Positions 56,482 to 64,000 of a stretch of DNA of 64,000 nt are shown piece after piece (the stretch's first letter is position 1; each line of letters opens with the position of its first letter). Source of the stretch: Escherichia coli (GTDB lineage Bacteria; Pseudomonadota; Gammaproteobacteria; Enterobacterales; Enterobacteriaceae); NCBI RefSeq assembly GCF_024223415.1, contig NZ_CP100500.1. One strand, written 5' to 3'. Both the position numbers and the translations under genes were made by a program. The notes under the pieces were generated by a model. The model did not search any database and was not told the DNA's origin. It saw only the letters and a list, made by a program, of their open reading frames with translations.

Positions 56482-57936
56482 TTACCGGAACGGCGGTTCA
56501 TTAAAGGTTCGTAATTTACGTGAATGCAGTCGGTCGCCTTCTGCGCGCAGCAAATCGATCGCCCGAATGCCAATTTGCAGGTGTTCGGAAATAGCGCCTT
56601 CATAAAAACGGTTAGCCTGACCGGGAAGTTTAATCTCACCATGCAACGGTTTATCTGAAACACACAGTAGTGTCCCGTATGGCACGCGGAAACGATATCC
56701 TTGCGCGGCAATGGTTGCACTTTCCATATCAATTGCTACGGCCCGGCTTAAGTTAAAACGAAGTGCAGAAGCTGAGTAACGTAATTCCCAGTTCCTGTCA
56801 TCTGTGGTTACCACAGTGCCAGTACGTAGCCGCTGTTTAACTTCCTCACCGGGCCTGCCGCTGACTAACTTGGTAGCGTCATAAAGCGCACGTTGCACTT
56901 CAGCAATGCTCGGAATAGGAATATCGGGCGGCAGTACCGCATCAAGAACGTGGTCATCGCGTAAATAAGCGTGTGCAAGTACATAATCTCCAATGGCCTG
57001 GCTTTCACGTAAGCCACCACAGTGACCAATCATCAACCAGACATCCGGGCGTAGTACTGCCAGATGATCGCAGATGGTTTTAGCATTTGACGGTCCCACG
57101 CCAATATTCACCAGAGTAATACCCTGACCATCGGCGGTAATTAAATGCCATGCTGGCATCTGGTGTTTTTTCCATGCAAGGTCGGAAATGGCTTCTTCTG
57201 GCGCTTCGGTTTCGGCGGTGATCCAGTTCCCGCCAGCACAAGAAAGGGCAATGTAGGGACTATCAGGATCGAGGATCTGGCTGCATCCCCAACGAACGAA
57301 TTCATCCACATAACGTGTGTAGTTGGTAAACAAGACGAACGGCTGAAAATGTTCAACTGGCGTACCGGTATAATGGCGCAACCGCGCGAGGGAAAAATCG
57401 ACGCGGCGCGCATCAAAATGCGATAGCGGGGAGAATTCCGTTGGATGATAAATGCCGTCTGCAGTTTCATCGCCAATTTGCGCCAGTTCTGTTGTCGGGA
57501 AGTAGCGAGTTAACCCAGCGCTCATTGAGCGATCAAGGGTCAATTCTGAGCCATCGATGACATAAGGATAAGGGATTTCATGCTGCGAGGGTTGCACCGA
57601 GATATGCGCACCATAATCCTGATACAGCAACGTAAGTTGTTCATTGAGATACGAACGAAAGAGAGTAGGGCGAGTAATCGTGGTGGTGTAGCTGCCTGCG
57701 TGGGTAAAACGACCAAATGCGCGCGTTTTGGGGGGATTGGTTGTGCTACCGTCCCAGGTTACGGTCAGTGATGGATAGACAAAAAGACCTTGTTTGCGGG
57801 CGTTTTCATCAGGTAATTCGCCACTTTTAATATATTTGCCAATGGCGTTGCGTAAAGCGACTACAGATTGCTCATACAGCGCGTCGAGTTTATCCAGTGC
57901 CTGAGCTGGGGTCAGACCGGAGCCCTTATTATTCAT
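56482..57936 (-). CDS. amn: AMP nucleosidase
   Basis: ORF 56482..58092; 484-aa product from MNNKGSGLTPAQALDKLDALYEQ (57936). Confidence 0.92.
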   Translation of the reverse strand: MNNKGSGLTPAQALDKLDALYEQSVVALRNAIGKYIKSGELPDENARKQGLFVYPSLTVTWDGSTTNPPKTRAFGRFTHAGSYTTTITRPTLFRSYLNEQLTLLYQDYGAHISVQPSQHEIPYPYVIDGSELTLDRSMSAGLTRYFPTTELAQIGDETADGIYHPTEFSPLSHFDARRVDFSLARLRHYTGTPVEHFQPFVLFTNYTRYVDEFVRWGCSQILDPDSPYIALSCAGGNWITAETEAPEEAISDLAWKKHQMPAWHLITADGQGITLVNIGVGPSNAKTICDHLAVLRPDVWLMIGHCGGLRESQAIGDYVLAHAYLRDDHVLDAVLPPDIPIPSIAEVQRALYDATKLVSGRPGEEVKQRLRTGTVVTTDDRNWELRYSASALRFNLSRAVAIDMESATIAAQGYRFRVPYGTLLCVSDKPLHGEIKLPGQANRFYEGAISEHLQIGIRAIDLLRAEGDRLHSRKLRTFNEPPFR

Positions 57937-58037
57937 GTGTGTCTCCTGTTCCATACAATTACCGCACATCCGATAGTATGTCACAGGAATGTGAAACAAA
58001 AGTGTAAGGCGAAGATCGGATGATCTTCGCCAGGCTA

Positions 58038-59354
58038 TTAAGCGCGTTGATTGTCTTTCATCAACAAAGCGGTCATTGCGGAAATCAGGCATCCAGCCAG
58101 CAAATAAATGGCGACGCTATGCCAGTTCCCCGCAAAGTAAGTGATGAGTGCAGCGGCAATGAAAGGTGTAAATCCACCGCCAACCACACTGGCAACCTGA
58201 TATCCGACTCCAGCGCCACTATAGCGATAACTGGCACCAAACATTTCGGTAAACATCGGTTGTTGTACACACACCACCATGTCATGCGCAATGTTTGCCA
58301 GCATTATGGAGAAGAAAACTATCCAGAAAATAGATTGTGCTTCAAGCGCCATAAAGAAAGGAAATGCGCTCAACGTTCCGATTAACGCACCTGTGATATA
58401 AACCCTGCGGCGACCAAAACGATCGGCAAGCCAGGCAAAACAGGGAATTGTCAGGCAGCTTAATCCACCTACCAGCAAACCAATATTGAGGAAAAGTTCG
58501 CGCGGTAACCCCATATTCTGGGTTGAATAATTAAGTGCGAAGGCGGTAACGATGTACATCGTCAGCAACTCGCACAGTCGTAGCGCAATAATCTTCAGGA
58601 AAGCACCGGGATGTCGTAATAGTGCTTCGATAACCGGGATGCGTTTTTTCGCGGCCGCTTGATTATGTTGCTGTTGTTCAAATTCCGCGGACTCCTCCAT
58701 GCCATTACGCACCCACAATGCTCCCAGTACCAGTACGATGCTAAACAGGAAAGGAATGCGCCAGCCCCAGCTTAAAAACTGTTCGTCAGTCGTCATCATA
58801 CTGATCAATGAAACCAGTCCGGTTGAAAGCAGTAAACCTACACCGTAGCCAACTTGTACACCGCTACTGTAAAAGGCTTTTTTATTTTTCGGAGCACTTT
58901 CAACGGAAAGCAACGCTGCGCCTCCCCATTCGCCGCCGACGGCAAATCCCTGAATGGCACGCAGCGTCACCAGTAAAATGGGGGCCCACCACCCAATGGT
59001 CGAGAAGGAAGGAAGAATACCAATCAAGGCTGTCGCGATACCCATCATCCAGACGGTCAGCATTAACATGCGTTTACGTCCCAGTCGGTCGCCAAAGTGA
59101 CCGAAAATGACACCGCCGAGCGGACGGAACAGGAATCCGACACCAAAGGTGGCAAATGCGGCGAGCGTTCCCATAGCAGGGCTTACTTGCGGGAAAAACT
59201 CGCGATTAAACACCAGTGCGGCGGTAATGCCATAGAGTAAAAAATCATACCAGTCGACGACGGCACCAGCGAAACTGCCTAACGCAGCTCGTCGGGCGCG
59301 ACTTAACGAAAGCGTCCCTTCATCGGGACGAGTGGAGATGAGCGTGGAGTCCAT
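58038..59354 (-). CDS. shiA: Shikimate transporter (MFS)
   Basis: 438-aa multi-TM ORF MDSTLISTRPDEGTLSLSRARRAALGSFAGAVVDWYDFLLYG... Confidence 0.92.
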   Translation of the reverse strand: MDSTLISTRPDEGTLSLSRARRAALGSFAGAVVDWYDFLLYGITAALVFNREFFPQVSPAMGTLAAFATFGVGFLFRPLGGVIFGHFGDRLGRKRMLMLTVWMMGIATALIGILPSFSTIGWWAPILLVTLRAIQGFAVGGEWGGAALLSVESAPKNKKAFYSSGVQVGYGVGLLLSTGLVSLISMMTTDEQFLSWGWRIPFLFSIVLVLGALWVRNGMEESAEFEQQQHNQAAAKKRIPVIEALLRHPGAFLKIIALRLCELLTMYIVTAFALNYSTQNMGLPRELFLNIGLLVGGLSCLTIPCFAWLADRFGRRRVYITGALIGTLSAFPFFMALEAQSIFWIVFFSIMLANIAHDMVVCVQQPMFTEMFGASYRYSGAGVGYQVASVVGGGFTPFIAAALITYFAGNWHSVAIYLLAGCLISAMTALLMKDNQRA

Positions 59355-59659
59355 AATGATCCTGTTTGTACTGTCTTTTTATAATTAGTATGGAAAAGGT
59401 AACTCACATTGCCGTCGATCTATAAACGAACCTTATGAGACTACCTCGACAGAGCGCATCTGCAAATGATTTTATGGCTGATTAACGGCAACATGAAAAA
59501 TTCGATGGAAGATGAAAGCGCAGGAGTTGCATAAGGATTAAGCAGGGCACCTACAGTTTTGAGATATGAAACATAAAAGTCCGCATATGCACAAAATTGC
59601 CCCCTGATGATTCTGATAGACTGCATTGCATTATAACCAGTAGGGAGGCGAGGTTAATT

Positions 59660-60712
59660 ATGTTTTTAGCATCATTGTTGAGACGTATTGCATTTAGTTA
59701 CTACGATTATAAAGCTTATAATTTCAATATTGAAAAAACAGACTTTGTTGTTATCCATATTCCCGATCAAATTGGCGATGCTATGGCCATCTTTCCAGTT
59801 ATTCGGGCGCTTGAAATGCATAAAATTAAGCGTCTTTTAATTGTTACTTCGACAATTAATTTAGAAGTCTTTAATACGCTCAAACTTGAACAGACTAAAT
59901 TAACATTAGTCACAATGACTATGCAGGATCACGCAACATTAAAAGAAATAAAAGATTTAGCGAAGAACATAACACAGCAATACGGTACGCCGGATCTTTG
60001 TATAGAGGCGATGCGTAAAAAGAACCTGAAAACGATGTTATTTATCAGTCAGTTGAAAGCAAAAACGAATTTTCAGGTAGTCGGTTTAACCATGCAGTGC
60101 TATTCCCCTTTGTGTAAGAACGCGTCCCGGATGGATCAGCATCTCAGGGCTCCCGTACCCATGACATGGGCATTTATGATGCGTGAGGCGGGTTTTCCAG
60201 CAGTCAGGCCAATATATGAATTGCCATTAAGCGAGGATGTACTCGATGAGGTGCGCGAGCAAATGCGATCGTTAGGATCTTACATTGCGCTTAATTTAGA
60301 AGGTAGCTCGCAGGAGCGTACATTTTCATTATCGATTGCAGAAAATCTAATAGCAAAAATTCAAAGTGAAACAGATATGCCAATAGTGATCGTTCATGGA
60401 CCCAAAGGGGAAGATAAAGCCAGGGTATTAGTGGATTGTTATAATAATGTCTTCCGTTTATCCTTATCATCCTCGATTAAACGTTCGGCAGCAATCATAA
60501 AAGATGCTTATATCGCAATAACTCCTGACACCTCAATATTACATATGGCAAGTGCCTATAATACCCCCGTTGTTGCAATTTATGCTGATTACAAAACGCG
60601 ATGGCCCGCAATGGCCGATGTCTCGGAGTCAGTCGTCGTTGGACAAAAAATTGACAATATAAGTCTGGATGAATTCGCAAAGGCATTAAAAAGTGTTTTG
60701 TCGAGAATATGA
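59660..60712 (+). CDS. yeeL: Glycosyltransferase family 9 (heptosyltransferase-like) protein, uninterrupted frame
   Basis: ORF 59597..60712; SD ggaggcgagg precedes ATG 59660 (MFLASLLRRIAFSYYDYKAYNF...), 350 aa. Confidence 0.7.
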   Translation: MFLASLLRRIAFSYYDYKAYNFNIEKTDFVVIHIPDQIGDAMAIFPVIRALEMHKIKRLLIVTSTINLEVFNTLKLEQTKLTLVTMTMQDHATLKEIKDLAKNITQQYGTPDLCIEAMRKKNLKTMLFISQLKAKTNFQVVGLTMQCYSPLCKNASRMDQHLRAPVPMTWAFMMREAGFPAVRPIYELPLSEDVLDEVREQMRSLGSYIALNLEGSSQERTFSLSIAENLIAKIQSETDMPIVIVHGPKGEDKARVLVDCYNNVFRLSLSSSIKRSAAIIKDAYIAITPDTSILHMASAYNTPVVAIYADYKTRWPAMADVSESVVVGQKIDNISLDEFAKALKSVLSRI

Positions 60713-60971
60713 GGAGTACTTATGCATAGTAGTACCGAACTGTTATGAACGGTGGTGTCATCAATACTCTGAGGCTGGTCAATCATCACAGAAAGCCAGC
60801 CTTTGGATCAAAGCAATACTCACCAAATACGATCATAGTCACACCGAACGCGATTCAGGTGGTGCCGTATTGTTATTTATTCATTTTCTTTGAGAGAGGG
60901 CAAGCTCTATAGTGGGAATGTAAAAAAGAGTGCCCCGAATGGAGCACTCTTTAAGAAATTATAGCGGAAAA

Positions 60972-63900
60972 TCAGAGGTTTTTATAACATGTCGCATAAG
61001 CAAACCCAAGCTTTTCAAATACGCTTTGATCACCTGTTGCCAGGGAAACTACGTATTGTTCGCTTGAGTTTGCGGGACTAGATGACCAATACATATTTGA
61101 TTGAAAACCAGCTTCAGTCGTGTAATGCCCCATATCTCCCCATTCACTGTACAGTGACCCGATGCCTCGGGAACGACTATGGTTTAAATGGTCTGCACGG
61201 GGAAGTGTGTAGCCATTGCTACTGCAAAAATTTTCAGCAAGGCTGTATATCATGAAAGCATCGCCGGCGTTCACCCACCAACTCTTCACACGGATTTCGT
61301 ATACATAGCTAGGGCCTCCTGATTTTGGCGTCGCCGTAATCCTTTCCCAATTGCTGCCGACATTTTTAAATGTCACTTTACCGGTAGCATCAACATCGAC
61401 CCAGGAGGCAGAGCTTGAAAACTCATAATCAGCCGCCGTTTTTCCTGGGGCAAAGTTGTCATTATTCAACTGATAATACGCCCCAGTGAACCCCTGCGAA
61501 GGGAATGTAGTTGTCGGTAGGTCAGTACCATTGACTGATACTGTACCGCTCATTATTTTGTCTTCTGCGCGAGTGAATTGTATTGTGGTACTCAGACCAG
61601 CTTGATGAACACCATTCAATACAGGGATCAGCGTTGCGATACCCTCTCCGCCGCCTGTAACAGTGGCTTTGTAATCACCGTTGATATTTAGACTGTAATC
61701 AATTGCGCTAATTTTTATATAGGGCACGTTAGTACCTGATTGCACAAATTCCATCCCTTCAGAAACTTTGATCGGATTGCCTGATATATCGTGCAGAACA
61801 AGACGTAATTCAGCACTATCGGTATAGTCCCCTTTCAGTGATGACCGATTGCTCTTAAGGACGGACTGCGAGGTGTCTGCCGGGCCAGCCACCAGCGTTA
61901 TATCTACTGTTTGCATTCCACCAGCGGTCGTGACTGCGCTTACCGTGACGCTACCTGTCATCGCTCCTTTCACGCTTGTTGTCGCGATTCCGTTTTGATC
62001 GGTCACCGCTGTTAATGACGTTAATGTGGCAGAGCCGCTTTTTAAGGCGAAGTACACAGTTAGACCTTCGATCAGGTTACCACTGCCATCCTCAACCGTT
62101 GCCTTTAAGGTACTTAAATCAGTGTTGGTGGCGGCGATAGTCGATGGATCAGCGATAAAGCTAGCAACATGTGCGGTGCTTGAGTTGCCAGTGACTTTCA
62201 CGGTTGTCTGTGTCTGTATTGTTACGCCGTTATGGAACGATGCAGTCACCGTATATGTACCGACTTTATTGCTGGTCAGAACGACTGGTGCCTGACCTGA
62301 AGAGTTGGTTCTCACTTTTCCGCCACTTAACGTTGCACCTTCTGGCGTTACGCTAAAGTTGATGACCTGACCCTCCACTGGCGTGCCATTTGCAGAAGTT
62401 AGCGTTGCCGTCAGAGTTGCACCTGTTGGGGAATTGACACCGATAAGCGGGCTGGACGCCGTGAGTGTCAGTTTTTCATCAATAGCCTCCAGTTGTTTCT
62501 CAATTGAGGCTCCATTCGCCAGGGATGCTTTCACCATATACGAACCGTTTCTTTCGGGCGTCATGGTGACCTCGGCTACACCCTGCGTATTAGTAGAGAC
62601 CGTATTCTGGCTGATGATCATTTGCGAGGATGGCTCTGCACTGAATGTCACGGGTTGATGCGCAACCGGGTTGCCAAACTGGTCGTTAACGTGAGCTTTA
62701 ACTGCTACGTCTTGTGCGACCATTACCTGACCTTCAGGTATCTCCAGACTGGTAATCGTCGCAGAATTAACATCTGCACTGGCATTCAGTAATCGCGAGA
62801 TGACTTCAGTAGGTTTATCTGCCAGAGAGGCTGAAACTGTTTTCAGTCCGACCTCGGTGCTTGTCACAAGAATTTCAGCGAATCCCTGACTATCCGTTTC
62901 AACGCTGGTGCTGCTTAGCGTGACGGAGGTTCCGCGGAAATTAACTTTTATGCCTTCTACCGGGTTGCCGTTAGCGTCAGTGACGCTTACCGTCATGGTT
63001 GCGCCCTCGGTCGTGCTGACGACGAATGAGTATACAGAGGTTAAGGAGGTCAGTTGAGCGGTACCCGGATCGCCAATCAACGTCACCTGTTTCGTATCAC
63101 TGACACCATAATTGATCACGCTAACTGTCACGGGATAGGTACCGGATTTGGTACCGCTCAGAGTAACTTCAGCCTTGCCGTTGATATCAGTAATGGCGGA
63201 ACCGCCTTGTCCGAGAGTGAAGCTTGCGCTCACATCTGCCGGTAGCGTGAATGTCACCGCCTCATTGGCGAATGGGTTGCCGTTTCCATCAGTCACTGTT
63301 GCCTGAAGTTTGGTCATCCCAATGTTATTGGCGATGAAATTGTCCTCGGTAACGTTAAGATTAACCTGCGCAGTGAGCGTATCCGCAGTAAAGTTCACCA
63401 TCAGTTGTCCGCTCTTACTGCCAGCCATCGATGCTGTAACAGTATGAGCGCCTGCTTTTGTACCTTTCAGCGTGACTTTCGCTTTGCCTTCAGTATCAGT
63501 AATCGCTTTACCGCCATCGCTCAGCGTGAAGTTCGCCCTCACATCTTCCGGCAGAGTAAATGTTACCCCAGTGTTGGCTATCGCATTGCCCTCTGTATCA
63601 GCGACTGTTGCTGTTAGTGTCGTGAGATCGTTATTGTCGGCAATCACCGGATCCTTCGAGGCTGCCAGCGTGATTTCAGCATTCGCGACGTTCGGCACAT
63701 AGGTCACTGTTTGTTGCATCGAATCGCCATTGTCGAGGGTTGCCGTCACTTGATAAACCCCGGCTTTTGTAGCGGTCATGCTTGCGTATAAATAGCCGTC
63801 GTGGTTGGTAGTATTTATACCGTTATTACTGAGGGTCACGCCTTCACTCGGCGAAACGCTGAGGGTTACCTGATGCAGGGGTACACCATTGCCGTAATTA

Positions 63901-64000
63901 TCATTCACCGTAATGTAGAGAGTGGTATCGTCGCCTGCCAATTGTGTGTCATAAAGTGTATATAGCGAGGTGAGATGTGCCGTAGACGCATCAGCGTCGA
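60972..64000 (-). CDS. yeeJ: Inverse-autotransporter adhesin YeeJ, C-terminal ~1000 codons (5' part beyond window end)
   Basis: Open frame to the window edge; repeated ~95-aa Ig-like modules (...TFTLPADV...FTL..GG.AITD..GKA.VTL.GTK.G...VT.S) then a C-terminal lectin-like domain. Confidence 0.85.
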   Translation of the reverse strand, partial: DADASTAHLTSLYTLYDTQLAGDDTTLYITVNDNYGNGVPLHQVTLSVSPSEGVTLSNNGINTTNHDGYLYASMTATKAGVYQVTATLDNGDSMQQTVTYVPNVANAEITLAASKDPVIADNNDLTTLTATVADTEGNAIANTGVTFTLPEDVRANFTLSDGGKAITDTEGKAKVTLKGTKAGAHTVTASMAGSKSGQLMVNFTADTLTAQVNLNVTEDNFIANNIGMTKLQATVTDGNGNPFANEAVTFTLPADVSASFTLGQGGSAITDINGKAEVTLSGTKSGTYPVTVSVINYGVSDTKQVTLIGDPGTAQLTSLTSVYSFVVSTTEGATMTVSVTDANGNPVEGIKVNFRGTSVTLSSTSVETDSQGFAEILVTSTEVGLKTVSASLADKPTEVISRLLNASADVNSATITSLEIPEGQVMVAQDVAVKAHVNDQFGNPVAHQPVTFSAEPSSQMIISQNTVSTNTQGVAEVTMTPERNGSYMVKASLANGASIEKQLEAIDEKLTLTASSPLIGVNSPTGATLTATLTSANGTPVEGQVINFSVTPEGATLSGGKVRTNSSGQAPVVLTSNKVGTYTVTASFHNGVTIQTQTTVKVTGNSSTAHVASFIADPSTIAATNTDLSTLKATVEDGSGNLIEGLTVYFALKSGSATLTSLTAVTDQNGIATTSVKGAMTGSVTVSAVTTAGGMQTVDITLVAGPADTSQSVLKSNRSSLKGDYTDSAELRLVLHDISGNPIKVSEGMEFVQSGTNVPYIKISAIDYSLNINGDYKATVTGGGEGIATLIPVLNGVHQAGLSTTIQFTRAEDKIMSGTVSVNGTDLPTTTFPSQGFTGAYYQLNNDNFAPGKTAADYEFSSSASWVDVDATGKVTFKNVGSNWERITATPKSGGPSYVYEIRVKSWWVNAGDAFMIYSLAENFCSSNGYTLPRADHLNHSRSRGIGSLYSEWGDMGHYTTEAGFQSNMYWSSSPANSSEQYVVSLATGDQSVFEKLGFAYATCYKNL

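Follow-up and report, generated by a model that had tools for sequence, protein, structure and literature searches.

The described proteins closest to YeeL of Escherichia coli are the lipopolysaccharide (LPS) heptosyltransferases I and II of glycosyltransferase family 9 (GT9), WaaC (RfaC) and WaaF (RfaF) (PDB 2GT1, 2H1H, 6DFE and 1PSW), and 3TOV, a GT9 protein of Veillonella parvula from structural genomics. A further comparison is offered by the bacterial autotransporter heptosyltransferases (BAHT) TibC and AAH (PDB 4RAP and 4RB4), which share the GT-B catalytic core, depend on ADP-heptose and are encoded by genes that adjoin an adhesin gene. The linkage of enzyme and substrate adhesin is co-oriented in these systems (tibC–tibA and aah–aidA). 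Here we describe the yeeL gene found at positions 59660..60712 (+ strand) of a 64,000-nucleotide stretch of E. coli contig NZ_CP100500.1 (assembly GCF_024223415.1), referred to below as the window. The first-pass annotation of the window had reported an intact, heptosyltransferase-like GT9 frame whose K-12 counterpart is a pseudogene, and had read a possible meaning for surface glycosylation into this intactness and into the adjacent yeeJ adhesin gene. The intact frame, the K-12 pseudogene and the family assignment stand, while the implied significance and the adhesin link do not. It is likely that yeeL of the window is an ordinary functional allele of an orphan, chromosomally ancient GT9 enzyme of the GT-B type, with a mechanism resembling that of WaaC and WaaF and, we infer, an envelope glycan as acceptor.

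The yeeL coding sequence is unbroken across its 1053 nt, with 350 sense codons running from the ATG at 59660 to a TGA at 60710-60712 and no internal stop. It shows 0 differences from the 1053-bp coding sequence of strain ECCTRSRTH03 (RefSeq WP_000477903.1). The strong Shine–Dalgarno (SD) region TAGGGAGG (59644..59651, + strand), read from the sequence, places GGGAGG 9 nt 5' of the ATG, and both this element and the start codon are kept in five alleles (the window, K-12, O157, CE10 and MLI107). An upstream TTG start at 59597, which would give a protein of 371 aa, was rejected since the ATG at 59660 fits the SD spacing, the RefSeq annotation and the N-termini of the orthologues. The protein is full length against orthologues of 341-377 aa, those of 349-377 aa giving alignments that cover 99-100% of the frame, and a full-length frame is kept across genera at 52-71% identity.

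In K-12 MG1655 the same locus (b4497), once divided into yeeL_1 and yeeL_2, carries the annotation of a 1053-bp pseudogene, and another K-12 record notes an 'internal stop'. Length, SD and start codon are the same as in the window. A base-by-base comparison finds 44 differences in 1053 nt (95.8% identity) and no frameshift; the sole inactivating lesion is at codon 235 (60362..60364, + strand), where the window has CAA (Gln) and K-12 has TAA. Besides this stop, the K-12 product differs by 17 amino acid substitutions. As K-12 stops at codon 235, and as the frame of the window is not truncated relative to its homologues, the basic claim that yeeL is intact here holds.

The distribution of the two alleles was determined in 5426 complete E. 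coli genomes using 40-nt queries designed so that each 28-nt megablast seed spans the variant base. The yeeL locus was found in 5284 of the genomes, with CAA at codon 235 in 4114 and TAA in 770. Those with TAA include K-12 derivatives, a B/DE3 strain and some human, livestock and wastewater isolates, and many of them are laboratory K-12 or B. One 350-aa cluster, named 'glycosyltransferase family 9 protein [Escherichia coli]', has 10,923 member sequences. In RefSeq the gene is intact in O157:H7 F8797, CE10, ST69, MLI107 and ECCTRSRTH03, and carries an 'internal stop' in strain 98215, as in K-12. Residue 235 of the orthologues is Q, K, T or R, and because these outgroups have a sense codon at this position it is the stop of K-12 that is derived. 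Intact yeeL is therefore the majority and ancestral condition in E. coli, with K-12 as the exception. The change from CAA to TAA is a derived nonsense mutation carried by a minority lineage to which the laboratory K-12 and B strains belong, and its presence in these strains indicates that yeeL is dispensable in culture. With a sense codon 235 in about three quarters of the complete genomes, and with the intact allele already in RefSeq and the K-12 pseudogene already annotated, the finding is known and carries little weight as a discovery; its value is corrective. It follows from the K-12 and B strains being natural yeeL nulls that the function of YeeL is to be studied in wild backgrounds, of which O157, ST131 and E. 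coli C-like strains free of the insertion sequence (IS) elements described below are suitable.

Membership of YeeL in GT9 is supported at the levels of family profile, fold and catalytic residues. The Pfam GT9 model (PF01075) scores 30 bits, above its cutoff of 22, over residues 209-321 only. A single-sequence search of the PDB was almost blank, with E 1.2 to WaaF and no TibC chain at E<=10, so a family profile was needed to reveal the structural homology to GT9. This profile, built from a 56-sequence alignment of the family, matches 3TOV (E 2.6e-25) and WaaC (6e-14) over approximately residues 29-343 in both cases, and its match to WaaF (1e-15) is split between residues 31-108 and 213-324. 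Pairwise identity is low, being 12-14% to WaaC and WaaF and 13-14% to 3TOV, and as 3TOV is itself functionally uncharacterised nothing can be transferred from it to YeeL. When 1.84 billion cluster representatives were searched exhaustively with HMMER, only about 20 full-length sequences at 21-38% identity were obtained beyond the orthologues in Enterobacterales; judged by these matches, the YeeL subfamily is small and divergent. AlphaFold2 prediction on the family alignment gave a confident model (predicted local distance difference test 95.9, predicted template modelling score 0.93) in which a helix (residues 2-13) is followed by two Rossmann-like domains, and YeeL is thus predicted to adopt the GT-B fold of GT9.

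A residue-by-residue alignment with WaaC (2GT1) pairs D40 of YeeL with Asp13, G215-S216 with Thr187-Thr188, R220 with Lys192, D290-T291 with Asp261-Thr262 and H295 with His266. The functional roles of WaaC Asp13, Lys192, Asp261 and His266 are taken here to be those generally given for this enzyme. The codons for Gly39-Asp40 (59775..59780, + strand) encode the GT9 'GD' motif, whose Asp40 aligns with the catalytic base Asp13. Those for residues 289-295 (P-D-T-S-I-L-H; 60524..60544, + strand) encode the putative donor-binding motif, and the Arg220 codon is located at 60317-60319 (+ strand), arginine taking the place of the WaaC lysine. Across the 56-sequence alignment G39, D40, N212, T291 and H295 are invariant (56/56). 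D290 is kept in 54/56 sequences, and position 220 is R in 50/56 and K in 5. The catalytic residues remain invariant in orthologues as far as 21% identity. As read from the alignment, YeeL thus carries the G-D motif and the C-terminal donor-binding residues of GT9. The ratio of nonsynonymous to synonymous substitution (dN/dS) in pairwise comparisons of well-diverged yeeL alleles is 0.09-0.27, and the gene is under purifying selection.

The N-terminal 28 residues (59660-59743) form a family-specific extension that WaaC and WaaF do not possess. It consists of a basic, hydrophobic and amphipathic helix (hydrophobic moment 0.47, residues 2-13) followed by a conserved DY motif before the first Rossmann strand, features that are consistent with peripheral membrane association. 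A second difference from WaaC, WaaF and WaaQ is genomic, as yeeL lies outside the waa (rfa) cluster, between shiA and yeeJ. By family profile, fold and catalytic motifs YeeL is assigned to GT9, but neither as a WaaC/WaaF/WaaQ equivalog nor as a BAHT enzyme.

YeeL is a complete and probably active glycosyltransferase, and most likely works in the manner of WaaC and WaaF. The C-terminal domain would bind a nucleotide sugar of the ADP-heptose type via Arg220, Asp290-Thr291 and His295, and Asp40 of the N-terminal domain would deprotonate the acceptor hydroxyl for inverting transfer. The acceptor may be an envelope glycan, either lipid-linked or of the LPS-core type, that is handled on the cytoplasmic side of the inner membrane, rather than YeeJ. 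Relatives sharing 34-36% identity are encoded within polysaccharide clusters, alongside Wzy_C, GT2, GT4, a second YeeL-like GT9, Bac_transf, WecG and Glf. By NCBIfam naming, the neighbours of the distant homologues amount to a generic polysaccharide cluster and define no LPS-core cluster. The GC content of yeeL is 39%, and low GC is typical of surface-polysaccharide genes. [quoted passage not shown] The clustered relatives, the N-terminal helix with its DY motif, the GC content and the TraDIS entry together hint at an envelope glycan or glycolipid as acceptor and not a protein. In one metagenomic genome (L016, 5750-9059) two YeeL-like GT9 genes stand about 1.2 kb apart in a polysaccharide cluster that also encodes two Wzy_C proteins, GT2 and GT4 enzymes, WecG and Bac_transf.

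A number of points weigh against the assignment of such a role. The cutoffs of the NCBIfam equivalog models for heptosyltransferases I, II and III are missed by a wide margin (TIGR02193, 40 bits against a cutoff of 185.3; TIGR02195, 20.6 against 134.6; TIGR02201, 17.8 against 170.2), and donor and acceptor are therefore not transferable from WaaC, WaaF or WaaQ. The ST131 TraDIS hit is a screen-level result. Within Enterobacterales yeeL is found outside glycan clusters, and in other genera it sits next to mtfA, amn or unrelated genes. Selection on yeeL is weaker than on the neighbouring shiA, for which dN/dS is 0.03. Finally, the gene has been lost repeatedly in nature, by nonsense mutation and by insertion of IS1, ISEc35 or ISSen4, so that its role would be conditional or minor.

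A more specific proposal, put forward tentatively and rather less likely to be right than wrong, is that YeeL defines a distinct GT9 subfamily, marked by the basic N-terminal helix, the DY motif and arginine in place of WaaC Lys192, that attaches a sugar, possibly heptose, conditionally or non-stoichiometrically to the LPS core or another envelope glycolipid in most wild E. coli. If this were so, the K-12 envelope as given in textbooks would lack the modification, as K-12 and B carry the nonsense allele, and the species would be only incompletely represented by the K-12 core structure. Such a modification could also underlie the hyper-motility hit in ST131.

The repeated, independent losses raise the alternative that yeeL is intact but a silent or decaying relic, unexpressed, H-NS-silenced, AT-rich and drifting towards a pseudogene. 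The occurrence of the stop in 770 genomes is accompanied by other losses, which include insertions of IS1, ISEc35 or ISSen4 and truncations, with truncated forms seen in Shigella sonnei. The dN/dS of yeeL is several-fold above that of shiA, its GC content is low, and a sigma-70 promoter scan of the shiA–yeeL spacer gave nothing above the shuffled expectation. A literature search on yeeL, in which the results were swamped by author initials, returned only the use of the locus by metabolic engineers as a neutral integration site in K-12, a secondary attachment site of phi80 between yeeJ and yeeL (PMC6016239) and the single TraDIS table entry, of which the first fits a relic. A relic would, however, not be expected to keep dN/dS far under 1, catalytic residues invariant down to 21% identity, a full-length frame in several genera, or its SD and start codon, and the hyper-motility phenotype reported for ST131 (PMC5425062) also speaks against silence. 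We regard a relic as unlikely.

It is less likely still that YeeL is redundant with the LPS inner-core heptosyltransferases, as a paralogue that backs up WaaC, WaaF or WaaQ. The top NCBIfam and PDB matches are indeed LPS heptosyltransferases I and II, and some sources annotate YeeL as 'ADP-heptose-LPS heptosyltransferase 2'. Against a backup function stand the equivalog scores, the very low identity to WaaC and WaaF, the location of the gene away from the waa cluster and the N-terminal helix and DY motif peculiar to YeeL. Mutation of waaC or waaF makes K-12 deep-rough, but K-12 is without YeeL and so provides no test of redundancy.

The remaining alternative is that YeeL is an adhesin-modifying heptosyltransferase acting on YeeJ, as TibC acts on TibA or AAH on AIDA-I. 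The 3' part of yeeJ, which encodes an inverse autotransporter adhesin, occupies 60972..64000 on the - strand, its frame running past the window end. A break in yeeJ near that end was considered and rejected, as the listed start at 63941 is a listing artefact and the translation stays open to the window edge. The two genes are convergent, tail to tail across a 259-bp spacer, and a strong terminator-like hairpin (60925..60952, - strand; 12-bp stem, 6 GC pairs and a T-run) lies between them, just 3' of the yeeJ stop. Read on the + strand, the same hairpin has a weak tail. In Pseudocitrobacter the order is amn-shiA-yeeL-mtfA with no yeeJ, and an Escherichia variant of 71% identity shows the arrangement hchA-GT9-mtfA-shiA-amn, again with no adhesin. 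The orthologues in Erwinia and Rosenbergiella and a homologue of 66% identity in E. albertii have unrelated neighbours and no adjacent adhesin, so that the linkage is absent at 5/5 other loci examined (three orthologues from other genera, the E. albertii homologue and the 71% Escherichia variant). The E. albertii homologue (CP117647.1; L006, 10001-11059) is situated between a yciI/tonB-like pair and yciA-yciB-yciC-ompW, beside a prophage integrase, and may be a translocated or paralogous copy.

The histories of the two genes also differ. The yeeJ gene is directly downstream of the tRNA-asnT insertion hotspot and was intact in 38/96 genomes (40%) (PMC5595812), whereas yeeL is near-universal. 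Their integrity is uncoupled, yeeL being intact in CE10, ST69, MLI107 and ECCTRSRTH03, in which yeeJ is frameshifted, fragmented or truncated. The YeeJ protein is surface-exposed and promotes biofilm formation in MG1655, and the paper describing this mentions neither yeeL nor glycosylation (PMC5595812); MG1655 is a natural yeeL null, so that YeeJ functions where YeeL is lacking. The four-cysteine iron finger of TibC (C339, C342, C358 and C370) is needed for its dodecamer and its activity (PMC4358343). The only cysteines of YeeL, at 114, 147, 152 and 260, form neither a CxxC nor a C-terminal cluster, and no iron finger was found; the N-terminal β-barrel and the β-hairpin thumb of TibC and AAH are likewise absent, and the YeeL family profile matched no TibC chain at E<=1. 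Despite the shared GT-B core, a role for YeeL in modifying YeeJ is highly improbable on these grounds, and the adjacency of yeeL and yeeJ, in which the first-pass annotation had seen a potential link, is not to be read as a glycosylation pair.

On its other side yeeL is flanked by the shikimate transporter gene shiA (58038..59354, - strand), which is transcribed divergently. The gene order of the window corresponds to the yeeJ-yeeL-shiA-amn region of K-12 in reversed orientation, with amn and shiA both on the - strand. The intergenic region between shiA and yeeL (59355..59659), divergent and presumed to be the site of the yeeL promoter, carries a 9-bp deletion (CTGGTGTTG-type) at ~59531 relative to K-12, O157, CE10 and MLI107, and the spacer is otherwise 98% conserved. 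The GC content at third codon positions of yeeL is 37%, and the overall GC content of shiA and amn is 50% and that of yeeJ 49%, making yeeL a compositional outlier despite its syntenic position in Pseudocitrobacter. A transporter of the major facilitator superfamily (MFS) is encoded beside yeeL in E. coli (shiA), Erwinia and Rosenbergiella; a conserved MFS partner was rejected, as these neighbours are unrelated to one another (BLASTP E > 1), and their occurrence in three genera is treated as coincidence.

The locus is a recurrent target of IS elements, with IS1, ISEc35 or ISSen4 in or beside yeeL in strains that include E. coli C. The inverted shiA–amn segment of strain G1/2 has an IS1A copy on either side, and these two copies cut yeeL into two fragments. 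The shiA–yeeL haplotype of the window (58038-60712) is rare: E. coli C, NCTC122 and WG5 are among only 38/5285 records at least 99% identical to it, and identity falls to 95.7% at the next-best match. The synonymous divergence from K-12 is ~0.11 at both yeeL and shiA. This pattern suggests that the shiA–yeeL segment of the window was imported or is recombinant. Adjacent to this segment, the mechanically called open reading frame for amn (56482-58092, - strand) has a length of 536 aa and extends into the 3' end of shiA, whereas annotated Amn has 484 aa; the extra N-terminal codons are an artefact of open reading frame calling.
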